A DNA stretch of 60,666 nt, taken from a virus (lineage: Duplodnaviria; Caudoviricetes). A model generated the notes under the pieces. It saw nothing but the letters and a program-made list of their open reading frames with translations. It did not search any database and was not told the DNA's origin. The position numbers and the translations under genes were made by a program. The stretch is taken from IMG/VR virus record IMGVR_UViG_3300048898_000081, positions 1-60,666 of that record, one strand, 5' to 3'. This document shows positions 47,377 to 58,554 of this stretch, in pieces. Each line of letters opens with the position of its first letter. The stretch's first letter is position 1.

Positions 47377-50300
47377 ATGCCGGACGGAGATTTTCTCGCA
47401 GAACTTAAAAAACGTGTTGGCTATAATCAGCCATCATCGCCAGACCTCGCATCTCAGCGAGCCGCGATAGAAAAGGGCGCGTCTCAACTAGGCGTCGACC
47501 CCACAGACCTTGCCTCAATAATCAGCTTCGAATCAGCCGGAAGTTTCGACCCGCATAAGGTCGGCGGTGAAGGGAACAGATACCGCGGGCTTATCCAGTT
47601 CGGACCAGATGAGCAGAAAACCTACTATCATCCGAACGATACCTTCGAATCACAGATAGAAAACGGCGTCGTGCCGTATTTCCGCGACCGGTTCAAGAAA
47701 GCCGGGAAAGACACGAACGGCGCGACGTTAAACGACCTCTACACGACGGTCATCGCGGGCAACCCGAATGCGAACCGGAACAAGACGGATTCGTTCGGTA
47801 CGTCTGCGAATAGCGGTGTTCAGAGGATCATCAAAGAGCACCGCCCAGAGGTCTTGAAGCGATATGGCTGGCAAGACCCGAACTCGACTCGATGGGCCGA
47901 CCAGAATCGGCCCTCCACGCCTCAAATAGACGCCCGCAGCGAGCTTTCGAAGCTCTTTGGAGGACTAGACGGCACTACGCCATCTCAGCCAGCCACAGGC
48001 CCGACAAATCCCGTCCAGCAGACGCTTAAAACGCCGGGACCGATGCCGGAGACGCAGACCACACTTGATGCCCAGCGAGCGGCCGCAAATGATCCACAGA
48101 GTTCGCGCGTCGGCGTTCTCTACACACATCCCGAATCATCGCCAGCGAGCCAGAACGAGATAGATATACCCGTGTCGAACGGTCAAGTCCTGCGGGTCAA
48201 TCGCAATAAGTTTCTTCAGTACAACCAGCAGACCGGCATTACCGCTGACGATATCACTTCAGGTAAAGCTGACTTTACGCCCCTGATCGGTGGCAAAGCG
48301 GCTCCGACGGGCGAGCCGTTTGGAACGCAGGGACAGGTTGCCGTGATCAGCCATGATGCGAACGGCAATGAACTTGTGTCGTCAGCCGTGCAAGACCCGT
48401 CGCAGGTTCCGGCTGAAGCCGCGTTGCAAAAGAAACAGTTTCCGAATACCCCGATCAAAACAAGTGTCGTTCCGGCGAGTGCAGTCATAGCCGGGAGAAC
48501 GGCGGCGACTCCGACCCAAACATCTTCTCCGTCCGGGTTGCCGCCTACTTCTACTGACGATAAAGCCTATCAAGCGTATCTCGCGGATGTGGCGCAGAAT
48601 CAGCCGGGAGTTACGCCGATGAGTCGCGAACAATATGCGGCGTCGGGGAACTTTGGGAAAGGCGTTGAGACCAGCTTAAATCCGAGCGATTTCAAAACGG
48701 GCGAGACTCCGGTCACTTCATCCGAGCTCGAGCAATTCCAGCCGACGCAGGATGGCGGTCAAGTCAGCTTTGCTCGTGAACAGGGCAAGCCGTCCGACGA
48801 TCTGACTGGCAAATTCGGCACATATCAGCCAAGCGAAAAGATCACGAATCCCTATCAAGCTTATGCACAGGCTCTTACAAATGTCGGCTCGCGGTACGGT
48901 CTGACGCCGGACAAGGCTCAGGAATTTGTTGACAGGCTGAAATCTCATGGACGCGGAGCTTTTGCGAACGAATGGCAGCCGGGAATGCCGATCGCCATCA
49001 CTGGAAAAGTTCTCGAGCAAGCGGGCGTCTCGGACATCGGTGCGCAGTCTGAGATGGAGCAGGCACGGAATGCTCAAGTTCAGCCAGATCTAAGTGTGCC
49101 AAAGGATGATCGCACGGCATGGCAGGCAATTCGCGGCCTGACGCCGGGGCAGGCATCGTCAGAAAACGACTACCAAGGCGATACGACGGGAGCGGAGGAA
49201 TTTGGGAAGCAGGTTGGAGCCAATCCGATGAACGCCCCGTATGCGGGTGTAGCCGGGGGCGTCGCAGATGTCGTCGCAGATGCTCTGAATGTGTTAGGCG
49301 GCATTCATACAACCGGCGTGACAGGTCTGGCGGAGAACATCGCGAGTTTCTTTGGAGGGGCGCCGAGGGAAACGGCATCAGGTCTTGGTCGAGCGGCTAG
49401 CCAGTTACGAGCATTTTCGAAGGGCACTGAGCAAGATGGCTTGCTCTATCAAATCCCGAAAACCGGCACGGAGATCGGCGGCGAATTCCCAATGTATGTT
49501 GGAGCAACTGCCCTAGCAGGCGGCAATCCTATTTTGGGAATGGCAGGCCTTGAAGGACTAAAGAGCGTCGGCCGCGGCGAAGACCTCAAACAGAACGCGA
49601 TCGAGACGGGCAAAGGTGCTGTGCTCGGTGCGATATTCCACGGAGCGGGCAAGTTTGGAGACTGGGCTGGGAAGAAAGTCGCTGGAAAGTTTCTGTCTGA
49701 GGAGACGCTGGCGGCGTTGAATAACCCCGCTTTACGAGAAGCCTACGAAGCGGCGAAAGCTCGCGGTGAAAATGTCGAACTGACACCGGACCTAAAACGG
49801 GCCTTGGTCGCCAATCGGCTTGTCAGTAACGGTACTCGGTTGGGGGTCATCGGAGGAACCGGAACGGCCGCGGCGAAGATCGAGGGAAAAGATTGGAGAG
49901 AATCAGTCAAGCAAGGGGGAATCTGGGTCTTGCAGGATATGGCCCTGTCGTATCTCGCAGGCGGGAAAGGCCGGAAACTTGAAGACCTCGATAACAAAGT
50001 TGTTCGTGTTCCTGATGAGCAAGGTCAACCGAAAGACGTTCTGCTTCGCCTGAATCCCGCGAAAGAACTTGAGGCAACCGATGTCACGGGACAGGTGCCG
50101 AAAGAGGTTGTTGACGCCCAGATCTTGCCATCGACCGAGGAAATGCAATCGCGGGCTCAACAATTCGAGGGCGGACTAACCCCTGAAGAAAGCAAGCAGA
50201 TCACCGAGCAATACATCGACAAACAGGGTCGCAAATACACGAAAGTAGCCGACCTTGAAAACGGCAACGTCCAAGTCCGCGATGAGAAAAGCGTCGAGAC

Positions 50301-53300
50301 GCAGCAGAACCCGAAGAATCTGGAAAAGGTTTATCCCGAGAGGGCCGAAGGGTTACAGATGGAGGCTCCGAAAGAGTCGGTGGCGTTAGCCGCTCGGCTG
50401 CCAATCTCTCCAATTAATGCCACGCCGCTTCAGCCCAGTGACGATAGAATTGGAGGTGACACCAAAATATTGACTGATACGATACAAAGTCCAACCTTCC
50501 GCGAGAAAGGCTTTAACGGCCTTGATGTCCCAACTAGGGAAATGGTGGTGTCTGAGATGCTCCACGCGATCCATGACCCGAAGGTTCGAGATTTCGTTGT
50601 TCAGTTTGTTCCCGTCGATGTGGTGGACAATCTCCTCCGCATCAAGAGACCGTCCCAAGTGTTGTTCCATGATAATCCGGTGCTCAAAGACGCTCTTCCC
50701 GCCAATATTAAAAATCCGATAACCTTGGGCAGAGATACATCCCTTTCGTTGATAGATGCCGTGGCACACTCTACTGCAAAAAACACGTCCGAGCTTCCCA
50801 ACGTGAGATCGGTTTCGGAAGACTTGAATCCCGCAAGTGATGCAGTTATAGGCGGCGTTGCGGCTCGCAACGAAACATCGTCGGGAGCAGAATCCGTGTC
50901 CAATCCCACTAGGGCATCGGCTGAATTGAGTTCCGCATTGGGGACAAGTAAGATGAATCGGCATGGTGCTGAACCTCCAAGTGAAAGCACTGTGTCTGGT
51001 GAGCCTGAGTCAACTTCGGGCTCGCCTTCTATTTTACCACAAAAATCATTCCCAACGCCTAGTGTCAAACGTCCGATTGAGAAGTCGAAAACGGAGACAA
51101 ACGCCTCCGGCGAAAGTGCCGGGGGGACGGGGAAGGGGCAGATTCTTCCCGACATCGAAACATTCTCCGCTCAATCAAAACAATTGCAGTCCGAGGGATT
51201 TTCGGAGCCAGAAGCCCGTTTTCTAATTTCAGAACATTATGGCGAAAAGGCTCAGAAATTCAATACAACTGGGAAAGAATATTCGACTGTTGCAAAGATT
51301 AAAAAGACATTTCCGCAACTGGTAGAAAAAGGTTTTATCGACATCCCGACGCTGAAAAACACTGGCGTTATACGCCTAACTGAGAGAGGACGGAATTTCA
51401 CAAACATTCGACTCGGAGCAAAGCCTGAATCCCTCAAGCAAGTAGCCGGCATCCGCGGCGCACAAAACCTTTCCGATTCCGAGGCTCGCAAGCAGAATTA
51501 CGTCATCGCGAAGTCGATGGATGAAGCGGGTCGTGACTCGAAACGCATTTGGCTCGCGACAGGTTGGGAAAAGGGTAAGGACGGAAAATGGCGGACGGAG
51601 ATCGATGATTCGGACGCGAAACTCGTTCCCGATAAAGCCCTCATCGGCAAATCGGAATTACGGGAAATTCTGGACTTTCCTGAACTCTACAAAGCGTATC
51701 CTGAACTTAAGCAAGTGCCCGTCCATTTCGATGAGAAGATGGCTCCTTCGACGCGCGGAGCATTGGGTAAGGATCAGGACGGCAATACGATCATAGCCGT
51801 CAACGCGGGACTCCCCTACAAACAGATCAAATCGACGCTCTTGCATGAAATACAGCATTTCATCCAGAGGGAAGAGGGCTTCCCGACTGGCGGATCGCCA
51901 GAGGCGTCGGTTGATAAGAAAAAGATTCATGACCTCGAACATCAGATAAACGAGTACAACAATCAATTAGCTGAACTTGTCGGCAAGCCGAAGTATCAAA
52001 CAGTGATGTCCGACAAACTTGCGGCTGTTAAGGAGTTGCAGTCTCTCCAAGATGAGCATGGAAGTGCGTTGGGGAAAGGAGCGGAAAAATACAACCGTCT
52101 CGCCGGAGAGGTAGAGGCTCGCAACGTCCAATATCGCCACTACATGACGCCCGAGGAAAGGGCGAAAACGCCACTGTCTGCATCTGAGGATGTTGATCGA
52201 GAATATCAGAGTTTGAAGATGGCAGCTCCGAATGAGAAAGTGGGCCTTCATTCGATCTATAATGAAAACGGGAGCATAAATTATGACAAAGCAAAAGATG
52301 TCGCCGGAAGAGTTGAAGGAGGCGAGCTTGAGATTAACAAATATGATCCAGCAGTCGAGCAGGGAAGGATTGCAGGAGGTCGCAGAAATGTCGAGGCATC
52401 CCTTATCCTTGCCGGAAGCGAGAGAGCAATTCAAGAAACATCGTCAACAAGCGGTCATGGGGTGGAATCGCACCGCAGACAAGAAAAACTCTTAGAGCAT
52501 TACGCTAAACGCGAAGGCGTCTGGTTTCAACCGGGCCATTTTCCCGACCGTCTCTATCTAGGTAAAGGGGGTGAGGCAATTGTCTATCAAAAAGACCCGA
52601 GCCGTGTCGCGAAAACCATTGATTATCGTCATATCGATAAGAGCATAACGCCTCAAAAGTTCCTCGATACCAGAATCTCGCTATTTAACTATCTATTCCC
52701 GGAATCGCATTATGAACTGATGGGCTTTATGCGGGACGCGAATGGGAAGTTTCGCATTATCGTCACTCAGCCCTTGATCCAAGGCGAAAAAGTGCCGGAC
52801 GTAGCCGCCGTTGACGCTTTTATGTCCGACAGGGGTTTTGAACATGACGAAGGTAATTCGTATTCAAACGACCTGTATCAAGTTCACGATCTTCATGCGG
52901 GCAACGTTTTACAGAGCAAAGAGGGTACTGTTTTCGTTGTTGATGCCGTTCCAAAATTCGTAAACGCAGAACAGTATCCGGCGTTCAATGTTGCTGAACC
53001 AGCTAAAGAGACCGAAACATTGTCCAAAGTTGCCGACGCCGAATCCCAAGCCCGTCTTGTAGAACTTCTGCCATACGTCCACTCGCAGGACATCATGGAG
53101 AACGCCAAGTTCGAGCGGAAAGGCGATCACCTTGAACTCAATGAGGAAGGCGGGGAACTGCTTCGCCGGTTGATGGGAACCGAATCGGGCGAGAATGAAT
53201 CGAGCTTTTTCGGAGCAACGCACTCGGCTGCGAAGCTTAGAAAGTTGGGCGACTTGGCGATGGAGAAAGCCAAGGAATACGTCAAGGATTACGGCTATAC

Positions 53301-56300
53301 AAACTCTCAGGTACGAAGCCTGCGGGAGCTTGGCGATCATCTGAGAGGTCTTGCGAAATCGGGTAAAGCGGGAATCACGTACGTCTATGATGATTCGCTC
53401 CCTGAGGAAACTCACCACGCTTTGATACTCGATGCGGGCGGAATATCGCCGAAAGCTATCGTGACCCTGAAAGAGAATCCGCTTTGGAACTCCGAAAGAT
53501 TCGATCAGGAATATCCGAACGCCTCAGACCGCGTAAAGGCCATCGAACTTGCCGCCAAGCTCGAAACCGGACAGGACTATTGGCCCGAGGTCAGCGAGGC
53601 CGATAAACAGGCGTTCCTAAATGTGGTGGCCGATGATATCATAGACAGGAATACAAAGGACGGGGTGTTGACCCTCGACCCCGATGTATTTCAGAGGCTC
53701 ATATCTTATGGCACGACTGAGACCGGCAACGCCGAAAGAAGCGAAACGATCCAACCAGCAGAATCAGGAAGCGAAAGCGTTGGAGAACCTGGTGGTCCGC
53801 CGAGCGAAACAACGGGGCGTGAAGGTAAAGTTTCCACGCCAGAAGGCGACATCACTGGTAATGGAGCCGCCGAAACCGCTGCAGACGAGACCGGTGTCGT
53901 TCGACCAGCCGAAGAAGGCCAACCCGCCAATGAAGCAGAGCGATCGGCAGAGCGAGGATTAAAAGAACGGAAAACCGTACAATCCGCTCACGATTTCGGC
54001 ATCCTTAACAAAAATCTCAGCGGCGACGAAACCCGCTATTACGAGACGAAATCGAACGACTCGACCGAGCGAGCCGCACAAGACCACGTTGAAAAAGTTG
54101 GATTCTCGAATGCCTTTAACGAGGCGATACTTGCCCCGTCTGAAAACGTTTCCCGTCTTGAGCATACCGCTAATCAAATGGCGGTCTTGCAAATCCTTGC
54201 CAAGAACTCAGCCGACGCGTTGAACGCCGGAAATCAAGAACTCCACGACTATTACGAGGAACAAGCCCAAGCCGTGATGCGGTCGATGGCGCCGGAAAAT
54301 ACCGATGCGGGACAAGCCATTCAGCTATTGAGCCGTTGGAAAATTACCAATCCCGCGACCGTCATCAACTTTACGAAGATGAAGATGGCCCAGAAGGGAT
54401 TGAAGCCGGAGATCCCCGCCGAGACGCAAACAAAGCTGACGGAAAATGCCCAGAAGCTAACGGACGCTCAGGCGAAAATTGATGCCCTGAATGCAAAGAT
54501 CGAATCGCTCGAAAAAGGCAAGCGTCAGTACGAGAATAAGGGCAAGAAAACCAAGCCGCTGACCTCAGTTGAGAAACGGGTTTTGGACAGCCTTGAGAAG
54601 CTGAAGAATGACGCGATCGCTCGGCTGACTAAGGTGCCGGATTCGTTGAAGATGGTTGCCTGGCACGGCTCGCCTCACAGGTTCGATAAGTTCGACATTT
54701 CGAAGATCGGCACGGGCGAAGGTGCGCAAGCGTATGGTCACGGACTTTACTTCACGGACAAGGAAAGCATTGCAGACCACTACAAAAATAAGTTAGCCAG
54801 CAAGAACGGACTAGAAGTTCACTTTGCCGATACTAAGCAACAGATGATTATGCAGAAGATCGGGGATATGAACTTTTTCCCCGATCGGATGGATCGTTTA
54901 GCGCTCGGAACGCTATGGAACCATCGCGATATTGATAAAGCCCTGGCATTCGCCCGACAGCAGATCGCCGACAATAAGATTGAACGCGAACTATACCGTG
55001 AAATTGAGTCGCGTCTGAAGGAATGGAAAGATCGTGGGGCGTATGTTCTCGGCAATGAGGGAGCTAAATACAAAGTAGACCTCAAGCCCGAAGCCGACGA
55101 ATATCTTTTGTGGGACAAGCCTCTCAGCGAGCAGAGCGAGAAGGTGAAGAAGGGGCTGGAAAAGCTTCTCGACGACCAGACGCTTGAGGACATGGCGTTT
55201 CAAAATATCGCCGTTAATACCGCCGAATCACACCTCGACCCCGATGTAACGGGCATGGGATTGTACAAAGACCTTACACGGCTCTACGGCGATAAAGCCG
55301 ATGTGTCCGACGCTTTGCACACAAACGGCATCCGCGGCATCAAGTACCTCGCGGGCGATTCACGCAACAAAGGCGAAGGAAATTACAACTACGTCATTTT
55401 CGACGATAAAGACGTTGATATTCTCGACTCGTTCAAAATGGCGGCTCCGTCGCCTCTCGCCGATGACATCCGTAACGACCTAACCGACGTTGGAGCTTCT
55501 ATCTTGCTCGAAGGCTGGCACGGCGAACCGATCACGCCCGAACAATTTCATAAAGAATTGACAAAGCTCGTCGGAAAAGGTTACGAAGCATTTTACAAAC
55601 AGATTCATGCCGAGTCCGTCGCCAAAATGGACGCGCGGATAAAGGACGAAAAGCTCAAGGGCGAGCTCGACCGTTTGCGTGAGGCGAATCCCGATAAATC
55701 GGACGCGGAACTCGCCGAACTCAATAAAAAGAATAAGGCCGAGACGAAGGAAAAGAATCAGGTGCGGGCCGAGCATCGCAAACTCGCCAATGAATTTCTG
55801 AAGGCCCCGTCGAAAGCAGCCAAAGAGCAAAAGCTGACGGCTAAAAAGATCGAGGATTTTCTGAATGCCGCCGCCGAGACTGACCTGTTCGCAGATGACG
55901 CAACACTCGCCGCCGCTCTTGCCCGAGAATCGGGTGCCGTCGGAACGTCAGAGGTGATGTCGAGGCTCAAACAATTGATGCCCGAACGGTTCAAACCCGA
56001 AGCATCCGACACCATCACCCAGAGAAAAGAGAAACAGCGAGACCTCAATAACAGCGTTGCTGAGGGCGAGAAGCTATACAAGGCCGTCAACAAGGCACAG
56101 CAAGCCCGCAGGCAAGCTCTACGCGATCAGTTGGGCAACGTGTCGCCGGAAGCCCGAAAGGAACTGGAAGCGGCCAAGACCGCCCGGCGTGAGGCTCAAA
56201 GCGACCTGACCAAGATGGTCAAGCAGACGACCCAGCCGCCGCCGACGGTGATGCACAAGGTTGCTCAAATCTCCCGTGCGTCAAAGGTCGCACTTATCCA

Positions 56301-58554
56301 GACGGCCGTAACGAATGTCATCTCAACCAAGATCGAGCAGAACATTGCGAATAAGCCGATGGACGTGATGGACATCGCCCTGCAGCGGATATTCAAGGGA
56401 CTCAAGAATGAAGGTCTTTCCGGCGATGCATCGATAGCAACGGCACTATGGACGCCGAATCTGCATAAGCCCGTCGATGAAGTCGGATTTAAGGATTGGG
56501 CGAAAGGACTTTCCAAACACGAAGTTCTCCTAAAAGCCATCGACGAGCATCCGGAATATTTCGCGAAGTTCTTTGGCGACTTCTCGCCCGACATGCACTC
56601 CGGTCTCTCGAAGGTCATCGATAAGCTGATGATCCCGATGAGAATGCAGGAATTCTTTATGCGCGACTCGGCCGGCGTCAAAGCTTTGGCCCAGCGTGCC
56701 GAGATGAAGGGCATCGATTTCAAACAGGTGTTGGCGGACAACAATTTCGATTGGGTGACGAAAGCCGATCTCGACTATGCGATGAAGGAAGCCCTGAGCC
56801 TGACCTATGCCCTGCGGCCTGAGAGAAACGGCGGCATTACCGACACGGCATTTTCCAGCGTGACATCGTTAATTCGTTCATCCGGTCTGCTCGACCTTAT
56901 CGGATCCGAATCGTTCCCGTTCCTCAATTTCATGTGGAACACGATCAATAAGTACAAGACGAAAGTTCCGGTCATGGCTCAAGCCAGACTTATTGGAAAG
57001 ACCGTCTCGGAAGCGAAACGCCTGAAAGCCGAGGGTGAGGAGCCTAATTACATCAAAGAGGCCATCCGCAACAAATGGACGTCGCGGCAGATCGCGAACC
57101 AGATGTTCGGCGTTGTCGCTCTCGCGGCAATGTACGGAATCGTAAAAGCCCTGGGCGACCGTGACGAGTGGTACTACTTCAAGATACCGTTCACAGACGG
57201 TCTCGGACGCGACGGCGGATCACTCTACGGCGACATCCGCACGCAGCCTTTGCTGGCTCCTTTCATGTTCATTGCCAACAAGCTCAATCGCGTTCTCAAC
57301 GGGAAAGACCTGTTCACCTATGGCGATGCCGCAGACGAACTGACCGAGGCGTTTCTTGGCACGTCCTATCGCTCGACGTTCGACATGAATAAGGGATTCA
57401 AGGCTATCTCGCAATTCGCGCAGCATCCGATCACGTCCGCGAACTACATAACCGGACAGGGCGACGACGAGCAGAAAAACGGCGAAAGACTCTCGATGTT
57501 CGCCCAGCAATGGCTCGGGAATGAGTTTGGAACGCTGACGAATTTCCTTCAGTTCAAGACCATGAAGGACATCGCCGCCCAATTCGATGAGAAAGAACGA
57601 AAGCCACTGAACCTCGACGAGCAGCCGGTTTTACAGGGTCTCGATGCCCGTGTTCCGGAGTCTCGCCGCATCCTGCAGGACATCATCAAAATGCAGGTCG
57701 AGGCCAGAAAGAACTATGCGACGGATAAAGAACAGGTCCGGAACCCACTGCCGGCGTTGAAAGTTCTTGGGTTTAATCTCCACGACGAGGCCGATCTGAA
57801 ACCGGAGCCGACGCAGGCTGAAATACTGGCCGCGAAACTGGCTTTTGGCGGTGATGATTACAAAGCCCCGGAACTGCCGGACGAGAAGAAAAAGGCCGCG
57901 ATCAAACGAGACTTCCGGAAGGCAGGTGAGAAGCTAACGCCGGGAATGCCCGAGGCCGATGCACTCAAAGCGAAACTCGCAACCTATGGCGAAGACCTGA
58001 CGCCCGGACAAGTTGCTTATGCCCAACGCCATTTGTTCTCGACCGATCTGCAAGACCATTTCGAGGGGCTGAAGGTAAAAGATGCTGATCGCGTCTGGAA
58101 CGCCGCCACGCCCAAAGAGAAGCCGCTTATTGAGGACGCCTATCGAAAGAAACTCGATAACGCAATGACGAGCTCGAAAGCATCGCCGCCCGAAAAGAAA
58201 CAGGCCCGCGAATTGTTCCAAAAGAACTTTGGCGATGAGAATCTGGCTCCGGAGGCACCGAAAGAAATTCAGGATGAGTTTGACCGGTTAAAGATACCAA
58301 CTCCCGGCGTCGGCGATAAGATGACTTTGGTTCCGAAGGGTGAGAAAACTACCTTGTCGACCGATCGTCGCGAGAAATACGAGCAACAAGTCCTCAACCG
58401 CACCTACACGACGATCCAAAAGATCATGGAACGCGATTCGTACAAGAACGCTGACGATACCCGCAAGAAGATCATGCTCGAGAGTGTGATCAATACCAGC
58501 CGGAAGGTCGAACGGAACCAGACTAAAGGCGACCTGCTCAAAGCCCGTCAATAA
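47377..58554 (+). CDS. giant polyvalent virion/ejection protein: lytic transglycosylase, LPD23-type peptidase, kinase, degenerate zincin, ART-like domain, helical C-terminus
   Basis: IISFES...GLIQF; TGWEKGKDGKWRTEIDD, HEIQH, LAGEVEAR; GKGGEAIVY, HDLHAGNV, VVD; WHGSPHRF...GEGAQAYGHGLYF...NYVIFD. Confidence 0.9.
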   Translation: MPDGDFLAELKKRVGYNQPSSPDLASQRAAIEKGASQLGVDPTDLASIISFESAGSFDPHKVGGEGNRYRGLIQFGPDEQKTYYHPNDTFESQIENGVVPYFRDRFKKAGKDTNGATLNDLYTTVIAGNPNANRNKTDSFGTSANSGVQRIIKEHRPEVLKRYGWQDPNSTRWADQNRPSTPQIDARSELSKLFGGLDGTTPSQPATGPTNPVQQTLKTPGPMPETQTTLDAQRAAANDPQSSRVGVLYTHPESSPASQNEIDIPVSNGQVLRVNRNKFLQYNQQTGITADDITSGKADFTPLIGGKAAPTGEPFGTQGQVAVISHDANGNELVSSAVQDPSQVPAEAALQKKQFPNTPIKTSVVPASAVIAGRTAATPTQTSSPSGLPPTSTDDKAYQAYLADVAQNQPGVTPMSREQYAASGNFGKGVETSLNPSDFKTGETPVTSSELEQFQPTQDGGQVSFAREQGKPSDDLTGKFGTYQPSEKITNPYQAYAQALTNVGSRYGLTPDKAQEFVDRLKSHGRGAFANEWQPGMPIAITGKVLEQAGVSDIGAQSEMEQARNAQVQPDLSVPKDDRTAWQAIRGLTPGQASSENDYQGDTTGAEEFGKQVGANPMNAPYAGVAGGVADVVADALNVLGGIHTTGVTGLAENIASFFGGAPRETASGLGRAASQLRAFSKGTEQDGLLYQIPKTGTEIGGEFPMYVGATALAGGNPILGMAGLEGLKSVGRGEDLKQNAIETGKGAVLGAIFHGAGKFGDWAGKKVAGKFLSEETLAALNNPALREAYEAAKARGENVELTPDLKRALVANRLVSNGTRLGVIGGTGTAAAKIEGKDWRESVKQGGIWVLQDMALSYLAGGKGRKLEDLDNKVVRVPDEQGQPKDVLLRLNPAKELEATDVTGQVPKEVVDAQILPSTEEMQSRAQQFEGGLTPEESKQITEQYIDKQGRKYTKVADLENGNVQVRDEKSVETQQNPKNLEKVYPERAEGLQMEAPKESVALAARLPISPINATPLQPSDDRIGGDTKILTDTIQSPTFREKGFNGLDVPTREMVVSEMLHAIHDPKVRDFVVQFVPVDVVDNLLRIKRPSQVLFHDNPVLKDALPANIKNPITLGRDTSLSLIDAVAHSTAKNTSELPNVRSVSEDLNPASDAVIGGVAARNETSSGAESVSNPTRASAELSSALGTSKMNRHGAEPPSESTVSGEPESTSGSPSILPQKSFPTPSVKRPIEKSKTETNASGESAGGTGKGQILPDIETFSAQSKQLQSEGFSEPEARFLISEHYGEKAQKFNTTGKEYSTVAKIKKTFPQLVEKGFIDIPTLKNTGVIRLTERGRNFTNIRLGAKPESLKQVAGIRGAQNLSDSEARKQNYVIAKSMDEAGRDSKRIWLATGWEKGKDGKWRTEIDDSDAKLVPDKALIGKSELREILDFPELYKAYPELKQVPVHFDEKMAPSTRGALGKDQDGNTIIAVNAGLPYKQIKSTLLHEIQHFIQREEGFPTGGSPEASVDKKKIHDLEHQINEYNNQLAELVGKPKYQTVMSDKLAAVKELQSLQDEHGSALGKGAEKYNRLAGEVEARNVQYRHYMTPEERAKTPLSASEDVDREYQSLKMAAPNEKVGLHSIYNENGSINYDKAKDVAGRVEGGELEINKYDPAVEQGRIAGGRRNVEASLILAGSERAIQETSSTSGHGVESHRRQEKLLEHYAKREGVWFQPGHFPDRLYLGKGGEAIVYQKDPSRVAKTIDYRHIDKSITPQKFLDTRISLFNYLFPESHYELMGFMRDANGKFRIIVTQPLIQGEKVPDVAAVDAFMSDRGFEHDEGNSYSNDLYQVHDLHAGNVLQSKEGTVFVVDAVPKFVNAEQYPAFNVAEPAKETETLSKVADAESQARLVELLPYVHSQDIMENAKFERKGDHLELNEEGGELLRRLMGTESGENESSFFGATHSAAKLRKLGDLAMEKAKEYVKDYGYTNSQVRSLRELGDHLRGLAKSGKAGITYVYDDSLPEETHHALILDAGGISPKAIVTLKENPLWNSERFDQEYPNASDRVKAIELAAKLETGQDYWPEVSEADKQAFLNVVADDIIDRNTKDGVLTLDPDVFQRLISYGTTETGNAERSETIQPAESGSESVGEPGGPPSETTGREGKVSTPEGDITGNGAAETAADETGVVRPAEEGQPANEAERSAERGLKERKTVQSAHDFGILNKNLSGDETRYYETKSNDSTERAAQDHVEKVGFSNAFNEAILAPSENVSRLEHTANQMAVLQILAKNSADALNAGNQELHDYYEEQAQAVMRSMAPENTDAGQAIQLLSRWKITNPATVINFTKMKMAQKGLKPEIPAETQTKLTENAQKLTDAQAKIDALNAKIESLEKGKRQYENKGKKTKPLTSVEKRVLDSLEKLKNDAIARLTKVPDSLKMVAWHGSPHRFDKFDISKIGTGEGAQAYGHGLYFTDKESIADHYKNKLASKNGLEVHFADTKQQMIMQKIGDMNFFPDRMDRLALGTLWNHRDIDKALAFARQQIADNKIERELYREIESRLKEWKDRGAYVLGNEGAKYKVDLKPEADEYLLWDKPLSEQSEKVKKGLEKLLDDQTLEDMAFQNIAVNTAESHLDPDVTGMGLYKDLTRLYGDKADVSDALHTNGIRGIKYLAGDSRNKGEGNYNYVIFDDKDVDILDSFKMAAPSPLADDIRNDLTDVGASILLEGWHGEPITPEQFHKELTKLVGKGYEAFYKQIHAESVAKMDARIKDEKLKGELDRLREANPDKSDAELAELNKKNKAETKEKNQVRAEHRKLANEFLKAPSKAAKEQKLTAKKIEDFLNAAAETDLFADDATLAAALARESGAVGTSEVMSRLKQLMPERFKPEASDTITQRKEKQRDLNNSVAEGEKLYKAVNKAQQARRQALRDQLGNVSPEARKELEAAKTARREAQSDLTKMVKQTTQPPPTVMHKVAQISRASKVALIQTAVTNVISTKIEQNIANKPMDVMDIALQRIFKGLKNEGLSGDASIATALWTPNLHKPVDEVGFKDWAKGLSKHEVLLKAIDEHPEYFAKFFGDFSPDMHSGLSKVIDKLMIPMRMQEFFMRDSAGVKALAQRAEMKGIDFKQVLADNNFDWVTKADLDYAMKEALSLTYALRPERNGGITDTAFSSVTSLIRSSGLLDLIGSESFPFLNFMWNTINKYKTKVPVMAQARLIGKTVSEAKRLKAEGEEPNYIKEAIRNKWTSRQIANQMFGVVALAAMYGIVKALGDRDEWYYFKIPFTDGLGRDGGSLYGDIRTQPLLAPFMFIANKLNRVLNGKDLFTYGDAADELTEAFLGTSYRSTFDMNKGFKAISQFAQHPITSANYITGQGDDEQKNGERLSMFAQQWLGNEFGTLTNFLQFKTMKDIAAQFDEKERKPLNLDEQPVLQGLDARVPESRRILQDIIKMQVEARKNYATDKEQVRNPLPALKVLGFNLHDEADLKPEPTQAEILAAKLAFGGDDYKAPELPDEKKKAAIKRDFRKAGEKLTPGMPEADALKAKLATYGEDLTPGQVAYAQRHLFSTDLQDHFEGLKVKDADRVWNAATPKEKPLIEDAYRKKLDNAMTSSKASPPEKKQARELFQKNFGDENLAPEAPKEIQDEFDRLKIPTPGVGDKMTLVPKGEKTTLSTDRREKYEQQVLNRTYTTIQKIMERDSYKNADDTRKKIMLESVINTSRKVERNQTKGDLLKARQ
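50386..50964 (-). CDS. HNH homing endonuclease (Zn fingers + HNH_3 + HTH) nested antisense in the giant gene
   Basis: CPQC..FCSRRC x2, EHRIIMEQHLGR.L...EIVHHIDGNKLNNEISNL; GGAGGT RBS 8 nt upstream; TGGTAAAAT at 51031-51039. Confidence 0.9.
   Translation of the reverse strand: MPIHLTCPQCGTQFSRCPSGIGHGFCSRRCFVASRNAAYNCITCGIQVFRNRSHVGKLGRVFCSRVCHGIYQRKGCISAQGYRIFNIGGKSVFEHRIIMEQHLGRSLDAEEIVHHIDGNKLNNEISNLRVMDRVEHLRHHHFPSWDIKAVKAFLAEGWTLYRISQYFGVTSNSIVTGLKRRGINWRDWQPSG
52283..52495 (+). CDS. nested +1-frame 70-aa helical protein, candidate antitoxin of the kinase cassette
   Basis: TATAAT at 52258, GGGAG RBS 8 nt upstream; amphipathic helices. Confidence 0.55.
   Translation: MTKQKMSPEELKEASLRLTNMIQQSSREGLQEVAEMSRHPLSLPEAREQFKKHRQQAVMGWNRTADKKNS

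Follow-up and report, generated by a model that had tools for sequence, protein, structure and literature searches.

The window analysed here is the whole 60,666-nt IMG/VR virus record IMGVR_UViG_3300048898_000081, in which primase/helicase and large terminase genes are present. It also contains the gene of a giant protein (P0001), which is a 'polyvalent protein' as that term is used in the available part of Iyer et al. 2017 (PMC5512222). Among the domains of this protein is Kinase-PolyVal, matched at E 5.1e-30 and 105 bits against a gathering cut-off of 27, and at 111.5 bits in a second scan. In the +1 frame, before this domain, lies a short open reading frame (ORF) that overlaps main-frame residues 1636-1706 and ends six codons inside the Pfam kinase match. 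The original prediction, made from the window alone, took this ORF for an overprinted gene and a candidate built-in antitoxin of the kinase. The elements that it named, a TATAAT 28 nt past the SLKMAAP motif, a GGGAG Shine-Dalgarno (SD) sequence spaced 8 nt from an ATG, and a +1 ORF of 70 aa, are all read in the DNA (Table 1).

Table 1. Features of the giant gene and of the embedded gene at its kinase cassette.
Feature	Position	Strand	Remarks
Embedded +1-frame gene, 70 aa (P0002)	52283-52495	+	ATG at 52283, TAG at 52493-52495
GGGAG Shine-Dalgarno sequence	52270-52274	+	8 nt before the embedded ATG
TATAAT, -10-like hexamer	52258-52263	+	25 nt before the ATG; main-frame Tyr-Asn
N-terminal helical extension of the kinase cassette	52237-52476, residues 1621-1700	+	Dual-coding partner of the embedded gene
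Kinase-PolyVal (PF18762), minimal protein kinase fold	52477-52956, residues 1701-1860	+	Pfam
SLKMAAP junction motif	52210-52230	+	Main frame, just upstream of the kinase cassette
Giant polyvalent protein gene, 3725 aa (P0001)	47377-58554	+	Single ORF
LPD23	residues 1369-1416 of P0001		Pfam
ART-PolyVal-like	residues 2426-2492 of P0001		Pfam, weaker match

Judged in the window alone, the embedded ORF is unremarkable. Its run of 71 codons is the ninth longest +1 run of the giant gene (116, 96, 89, 86, 85, 82, 77, 76 and 71 codons), in a frame that has 136 stops and 11 ORFs of at least 50 aa. This suits the explanation that there is no gene here and that the open +1 frame is a by-product of the conserved main-frame protein, of local codon usage, or of some element acting at the nucleotide level, for instance RNA structure or an internal regulatory site. 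The origin of the ATG and of the common stop in conserved main-frame residues, Tyr-Asp/Glu (TATGA) and Leu-Glu (TTAGA) respectively, suits it as well. That the ORF is nevertheless judged to be beyond chance is due to the comparison of homologous DNA and not to the window itself.

A DNA-level search of the region against phage and plasmid collections gave no match, and tblastn against phages gave one partial match, upstream of the region. In viral contigs no relative was found by a single-sequence scan and one was found by an alignment-based scan, in the kinase part only. At the protein level, a search with residues 1560-1900 returned 171 proteins, the best of which (40-64% identity) share both the kinase and the stretch preceding it. 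An alignment of 13 cassettes (A1) was used to fetch the DNA of homologous loci, giving 1 viral, 80 metagenomic (of 106 confirmed) and 8 genomic loci.

The +1 frame is uninterrupted over 59-264 codons in all 61 tblastn stretches from these relatives that cover the region (58 loci). Each of the stretches has 2-9 stops in the +2 frame, and in the main frame they are 29-56% identical to the window. Stops in the +1 frame of homologs, which the original prediction had named as evidence against itself, are therefore absent from this set. They were also sought in loci selected by the Pfam kinase model alone, which starts after the ORF. This sample covered 401 genomes from the order of G001, 17 of them with a match, and yielded 13 loci with an intact domain start. 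Ten of the 13 have an open +1 run of 43-87 codons just upstream of the domain, and the other three have runs of 0, 2 and 6 codons; the +2 frame is never open for more than 31. In another sample of 401 genomes, from the phylum of G002, the kinase was present in only 3 genomes, which gave two new loci.

Expectations for the open frame were obtained from 28 non-redundant sequences (<90% nucleotide identity) that contain both the module and the kinase. Over main-frame positions 36-92 these have no +1 stop, all 28 being open. Resampling of codons with the main-frame proteins fixed (200 trials) gives a mean of 80.4 +1 stops (sd 7.2, minimum 60) and 1.1 open sequences, and a second null built from the codon usage of the whole segment gives 71.5 stops, with a minimum of 49. 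In the kinase, three control windows of 57 codons contain 79, 87 and 116 +1 stops where 69, 73 and 100 are expected, and the +2 frame of the 28-sequence set has 106-111. In the reverse null, in which the +1 peptide is fixed and its codons resampled, 131 main-frame stops are predicted (sd 8.4) and 1 is observed. Both frames are therefore actively kept open. The kinase windows serve as controls in place of the other long alternate-frame ORFs, since homologous DNA spanning 53684-53962, 51521-51796, 50963-51226 and 55301-55483 was sought for this use and none was found. The first three of these, in the +1 frame, and one at 49119-49400 in the +2 frame are 87-93 aa long.

Selection was measured with a simplified OLGenie scheme, in which single differences between pairs at most 25% apart are classed by their effect in both frames. 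For the +1 frame in the overlap, the alternate-frame ratio (dNN/dNS) is 0.19, with a column bootstrap interval of 0.11-0.31; the 51 overlap and 31 kinase pairs are not independent, having shared ancestry, and the intervals reflect sites rather than lineages. The same ratio is 1.10 for the +2 frame in the overlap, and 1.00 and 0.82 for the +1 and +2 frames in the kinase. The corresponding main-frame ratio (dNN/dSN) is 0.27 in the overlap against 0.07 in the kinase, the main frame being the less constrained in the overlap. Third-position diversity is lower in the overlap, at 0.52 versus 0.64. This is because codon choice in the main-frame GGxRNVEAS motif is fixed: its Val, Ala and Ser are nearly always GTC/GTT, GCA and TCC, so that the +1 frame reads E-M-[SL]-[KR]-H-P.

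A small independent sign of +1 constraint comes from the contigs of a 90-99% identical relative from another sample. Differences number 6 over the 241 nt of the overlap, compared with 14 over 150 nt and 11 over 151 nt of flanking sequence. Of the 16 flank differences listed, 15 are synonymous and in third position, whereas the 4 listed in the overlap are spread over all three codon positions. The overlap differences include R38K, towards the family consensus, and one that is silent in the +1 frame.

These results bear directly on the explanation that no gene is present. Codon resampling predicts 71-80 stops where none is seen, the kinase control windows match the null, and the alternate-frame ratio of 0.19 stands against 0.82-1.10 in the controls. 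Synonymous choices are fixed to yield E-M-S-K-H-P, and the peptide is found elsewhere as proteins called on their own and as part of other fusions. Two of the loci (L098 and L099) have similar +1 peptides but dissimilar main-frame stretches, which look unconserved. It is therefore very improbable that the open frame is a by-product. Judged from these sequence comparisons, 52283-52495 is very probably a genuine overprinted protein-coding gene.

The start of the gene is conserved to differing degrees. The ATG is exactly 35 codons before the alignment anchor in 48 of 62 entries. An SD-like GGAG 4-mer is found at -16 to -7 in 28 of 54 distinct upstream sequences, and those that lack it are mostly of low GC content. 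The hosts of the latter we take to be Bacteroidota-like; Bacteroidota-type hosts generally do not use SD sequences. An exact TATAAT is present at -25 in just 14 of the 54, at -24 in 1 and at -16 in 2. Of the elements whose conservation in tblastn relatives was to be checked, the ORF and its ATG are kept, the SD sequence is kept in about half of the cases, and the TATAAT is poorly kept. With a conserved open frame, a low dNN/dNS, and an ATG and SD that are kept, the proposal of an overprinted +1 gene with its own ribosome-binding site is well borne out.

The proposal that the gene also has its own promoter is not. No sigma-70-like promoter with both hexamers was found in 51900-52700 (0 sites, 0.8 expected), in agreement with the original remark that a good -35 is lacking. 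The TATAAT is poorly kept and coincides with a conserved main-frame Tyr-Asn, and an internal promoter was accordingly rejected. As read from the sequence, initiation inside the long mRNA is enough for the embedded ORF. Because the SD and ATG are conserved, the gene would be translated by internal initiation at the GGGAG-8nt-ATG on the giant-gene mRNA. A search of RNA runs returned none that contains this stretch. A programmed frameshift into the +1 frame was also considered and set aside, the ORF having its own conserved SD and ATG and being called as a separate protein elsewhere.

The embedded peptide has many relatives. A nine-peptide profile found 76 separately called proteins of 53-118 aa at E<=0.001 (of 545 candidates), and a 53-peptide profile found 275 cluster representatives at the same threshold, mostly small, 81 of them at <=1e-10. 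Apart from one fusion protein (P0242), the separately called proteins of this family have no Pfam domain. The nine members of the peptide alignment (A2) had no match in PADLOC, and against Pfam, NCBIfam and PHROGs the best E was 0.0049, each family being matched by one of the nine. In these libraries the peptide matched no antitoxin, immunity or defence family, and the protein atlas gave no usable match to it. On the evidence of these searches, the peptide is an unannotated small-protein family. It has a conserved E-M-[SL]-[KR]-H-P-x-S turn. AlphaFold2, run with 53 sequences, models a helical hairpin (helices 8-38 and 43-68) with a predicted local distance difference test score (pLDDT) of 82.2, the invariant H-P-x-S being at the hairpin turn. 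This agrees with the earlier description of the peptide as helical. One member (P0213) consists of two tandem copies of the peptide domain.

The stretch of main-frame protein that shares this DNA also appears to be folded. AlphaFold2 of the cassette (27 sequences) gave a pLDDT of 92.3 and a predicted template modelling score of 0.90, with a pLDDT of 92-98 over most of the N-terminal extension. The overlapped main-frame residues are modelled as ordered helices packed on the kinase. Since the extension and the peptide are both modelled as ordered, the same DNA is predicted to encode two folded polypeptides. The original statement that the ORF ends where the kinase fold begins consequently holds for the Pfam model, but not for the AlphaFold2 model, in which the overlapped stretch is an ordered extension of the kinase. 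The possibility that the main-frame stretch is a mere linker constrained by the +1 gene alone was rejected for this clade, given the ordered model and the dNN/dSN of 0.27.

The modelled kinase has a reduced C-lobe and ends soon after the DFG-like Asp. In a fold search of the PDB the best matches were protein kinases, including NleH1/2 (4lrj, 4lrk and 4o96). The similarity is weak, with template modelling (TM) scores of 0.3 by query and about 0.5 by target, and 17-20% identity. The available part of Iyer et al. 2017 (PMC5512222) describes the Kinase-PolyVal family as having lost the entire C-terminal subdomain.

Modelling of the peptide together with the kinase, one of the checks proposed at the outset, predicted binding. 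The complex scored 0.88 (runs of 0.90, 0.00 and 0.88), against 0.05 for the best of three controls. The score mark was reached by 58 of 80 solved complexes and by 2 of 110 mismatched pairs, counts that are only rough for complexes modelled from our own alignments. The runs have at least 2% of contacts in common, and the pLDDT of the partner is at least 39. Nearly all of the 118 predicted contacts are on the kinase core downstream of the overlap. They involve strand 1 (LYLGK), the strand 2-3 turn, YLFPES after helix C, the hinge (PLIQGEK), the helix after the hinge, the catalytic-loop HAG, and strands 7-8. From these models it is probable that the peptide binds the kinase core. An inhibitor would suit the modelled interface about as well as a structural or activating subunit would.

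The module is found in several genomic settings. It is part of giant polyvalent ORFs in the window and in three other loci (L008, L017 and L023), and of polyvalent-type ORFs with shorter open runs of approximately 600-900 codons in four more (L004, L009, L024 and L026). Acidobacteriota and Bacteroidia assemblies have it in kinase genes that stand alone and encode 242-290 aa. The occurrence of the ORF in both kinds of gene supports the earlier suggestion that it moves with the kinase cassette. Distant kinases (L027, L039, L047, L088, L002 and L089) have a +1 run of 59-76 codons up to the kinase, and across relatives the embedded ORF ends within 1-18 codons of the kinase domain start. In one locus (L037) the main frame is broken and the kinase ORF restarts where the small ORF ends. 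In four others (L046, L074, L055 and L056) the kinase is truncated or missing and both frames of the module persist.

Three of the stand-alone loci have a gene for a STAND-like (signal transduction ATPase with numerous domains) AAA_16 ATPase of about 410 aa directly before the kinase (L083:731-1966, L084:725-1963 and L086:720-1946). In all three the small ORF has a GGAG SD, and no SD-like motif was flagged before the candidate kinase starts. The ATPase neighbour suggests that the kinase is a conflict-system effector in need of restraint, and the Acidobacteriota loci with ATPase and kinase may be an unrecognised defence or conflict operon. In L084 there are also an adjoining GNAT gene and a pair of short ORFs, read by eye as a PIN-type toxin and its antitoxin.

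We tentatively favour the view that the peptide is an inhibitor rather than another type of partner. The 70-aa hairpin would bind the kinase core encoded just downstream in the other frame and, as a cognate inhibitor of immunity or antitoxin type, would silence the kinase in the producing cell. Unfolding of the polyvalent protein for delivery into the next host would then remove the non-covalent partner. Stand-alone bacterial copies would be two-gene modules of a kinase and its inhibitor, and the use of one DNA stretch for both would make the pair inseparable when cassettes shuffle in frame between polyvalent proteins. An inhibitor is favoured because of the antitoxin-like gene order and the stronger SD of the small ORF in stand-alone loci, and also because of the link to STAND ATPases and the shedding of a non-covalent inhibitor on unfolding for delivery. 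The small gene is upstream of the kinase and overlaps it, as is usual for antitoxins, which is circumstantial support by analogy. The retention of the small ORF where the kinase is truncated or gone was counted for an inhibitor as well, as weak support.

As a whole, and with less than even confidence, the locus can be seen as an ancient dual-coding module in which a pair of folded, mutually binding polypeptides is obtained from some 65 codons by reading them in two frames. One would be the extension at the N-terminus of the minimal kinase, the other a hairpin that regulates this kinase. The module would be a self-contained effector-plus-immunity cassette that can be pasted in frame into the giant polyvalent proteins of phages and conjugative elements without loss of the partner, and that also functions by itself behind STAND ATPases in bacterial chromosomes.

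Several findings weigh against this interpretation. The lack of a match to any antitoxin, immunity or defence family is one, and the interface, which is not diagnostic of active-site occlusion and could equally be that of a lobe-bridging subunit, is another. Of the three complex runs, one left the partner unfolded and had a score of 0.00. The three Pfam-selected loci without a +1 ORF, the proteins that have the peptide domain without a kinase (below), and the non-independence of the sequence pairs in the dN/dS counts also count against it. The loci without a kinase keep the main-frame extension open too, and may be recent remnants instead of orphan immunity genes that were retained. There would be little need to inhibit a toxic kinase that a lytic phage makes late. 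The missing C-terminal subdomain, as the available part of Iyer et al. 2017 (PMC5512222) reports it, favours a structural role, and the fusion of the peptide to the kinase suits a subunit more than a dissociable inhibitor.

The last two points lead to a second explanation, in which a real gene encodes a kinase-binding product that acts as an obligate subunit, structural or activating. The hairpin would replace the missing C-terminal subdomain or form a substrate platform, and would be packaged or delivered with the kinase. The absence of that subdomain from the family (Iyer et al. 2017, PMC5512222, in the part available) and the existence of a fusion make this nearly as likely as an inhibitor, although taken by itself it is on the unlikely side. 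The fusion protein, P0242 (273 aa), carries the peptide and a Kinase-PolyVal domain (E 1.6e-28) in one frame; a frameshift error may account for this. The very large interface of 118 contacts, along the hinge, the next helix and strands 7-8, is where the C-lobe helices of ordinary kinases pack. The nearest solved folds include the minimal effector kinases NleH1/2 (TM about 0.5 by target), and strict co-inheritance suits an obligate subunit as well as an inhibitor. Conversely, a non-covalent subunit would need passage through the tail with the unfolded polyvalent protein, and an ordered helical subdomain is already present at the N-terminus of the modelled kinase, in the form of the main-frame extension. 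The 3 of 13 Pfam-selected kinases without a +1 ORF indicate that the kinase can exist alone.

A third explanation is that the gene is real and its role is not tied to the kinase, the peptide being a small effector, an adaptor, an oligomerisation module or a translational regulator of kinase reading. In four proteins (P0304, P0316, P0249 and P0264) the peptide domain is N-terminal to unassigned C-terminal parts without a kinase, and in P0213 it occurs in tandem. The loci that retain the peptide without a kinase domain and the failed complex run are also in keeping with such a role. Against these stand the constant place of the ORF, in 61 of 61 relatives and 10 of 13 Pfam-selected loci, 1-18 codons from the kinase start; the complex score of 0.88 versus no more than 0.05 in the controls; and the existence of the in-frame kinase fusion. 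A role apart from the kinase is thus improbable, and the peptide is more readily seen as a partner of the kinase, with inhibition the function tentatively preferred.

Other features of the giant gene and its relatives were noted. A [S][LF]KM[AV]A word recurs at domain junctions of the giant protein at 52210, 54643 and 55429 (residues 1612, 2423 and 2685), which places it before the kinase cassette, before the ART-like domain and after the ART-like domain. Homologs have repeated junction words of their own, SLQMAAP in P0003 and P0004 and PMRQA/PMAQA in P0006. A zincin-like HEIQH (HExxH, residue 1490 of the giant protein) is located just upstream. The recurring words may be peptidase processing sites.

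Two kinase-type modules each, with every +1 frame open, are found in P0003, L004 (anchors 473 and 1412), L053/L054 and L027. A Bacteroidia stand-alone kinase with the embedded ORF (L085:187-3893) is located among GT8, GT2 and GT4 glycosyltransferase genes, and the substrate of this kinase may not be a protein. In L046, L056, L065, L074 and other loci of one metagenome series the dual-coding module is present with the kinase cut off. Beside it are a recurring gene (...VKRDGQCKLVIEPGDVPGFVVFADC...) and a small Cys-rich membrane ORF. The contigs of this series resemble cassette arrays scrambled by recombination.

Outside tiny viruses, overlapping genes on the same strand seldom find acceptance, and they are thrown out by annotation pipelines. 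The present gene, which is fully embedded, is conserved in genomes ranging from those of soil phages to those of Acidobacteriota and Bacteroidales. It adds a missing component to the Kinase-PolyVal effectors, together with an unannotated family of 275 cluster representatives. If the peptide is an inhibitor or a subunit, modular conflict proteins are shown to carry a partner through in-frame domain shuffling. The locus is also a natural case of two folded proteins, predicted to interact, that the same stretch of nucleotides encodes, which is relevant to designed 'entangled' genes. The available text of Iyer et al. 2017 (PMC5512222) describes the kinase and its stand-alone forms and no embedded ORF, and the word 'overlapping' is absent from it. 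A full-text literature search, judged from titles and the beginnings of abstracts, found no paper on the embedded ORF.

Overprinting itself is familiar from genes B, K and E of phiX174, which are usually explained by the compression of tiny genomes and which often give rise to a disordered new protein. What those genes share with the present one is dual coding on one strand, both frames being under purifying selection. The setting differs, being here a phage of at least 60 kb and bacterial genomes of several megabases, and the prediction for the two products is that they fold and bind one another.

The kinase core with its reduced C-lobe resembles the NleH and OspG kinases, and the activity of OspG depends on a bound protein partner. 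The structural similarity is weak, however, and in the present case the element itself codes for the partner, using the same DNA.

In function, the nearest systems are by analogy the kinase toxin-antitoxin pairs and the toxin-immunity cassettes, the peptide being a member of none of them. In HipBA and HipBST a Ser/Thr-type kinase is neutralised by a small partner whose coding sequence lies at or before the 5' end of that of the kinase, and in HipBST the small partner binds the kinase directly. Here too a kinase is paired with a small partner at its 5' end, with neutralisation putative. In those systems the partner is encoded beside the kinase gene, whereas here it is encoded within that gene and out of frame; a DNA-binding antitoxin is absent, and no PADLOC, Pfam or NCBIfam model is matched. 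The likeness to polymorphic toxin-immunity cassettes is that a conflict enzyme domain is shuffled with a linked small partner; cassette-like variability of polyvalent proteins is described in the available part of Iyer et al. 2017 (PMC5512222). The difference is that in those cassettes the immunity gene is separate and downstream, whereas here the putative partner is overprinted upstream, on the N-terminal extension of the domain.

The nearest analogue in kind is the Rz/Rz1 pair. In phage lambda the small Rz1 gene is wholly inside the +1 frame of the larger Rz gene, has its own start, and the two products bind. The present gene is likewise embedded in the +1 frame with its own start, and binding of its product to the partner is predicted by the models. 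Rz1 is a lysis lipoprotein, while the peptide described here would be a soluble helical hairpin without a signal sequence, and the two have no sequence relation. The host gene also differs, being the kinase cassette of a virion-associated polyvalent protein, and the pair is found in bacterial chromosomes as well. The relationship to Rz/Rz1 should therefore be seen as one of analogy and not of membership.

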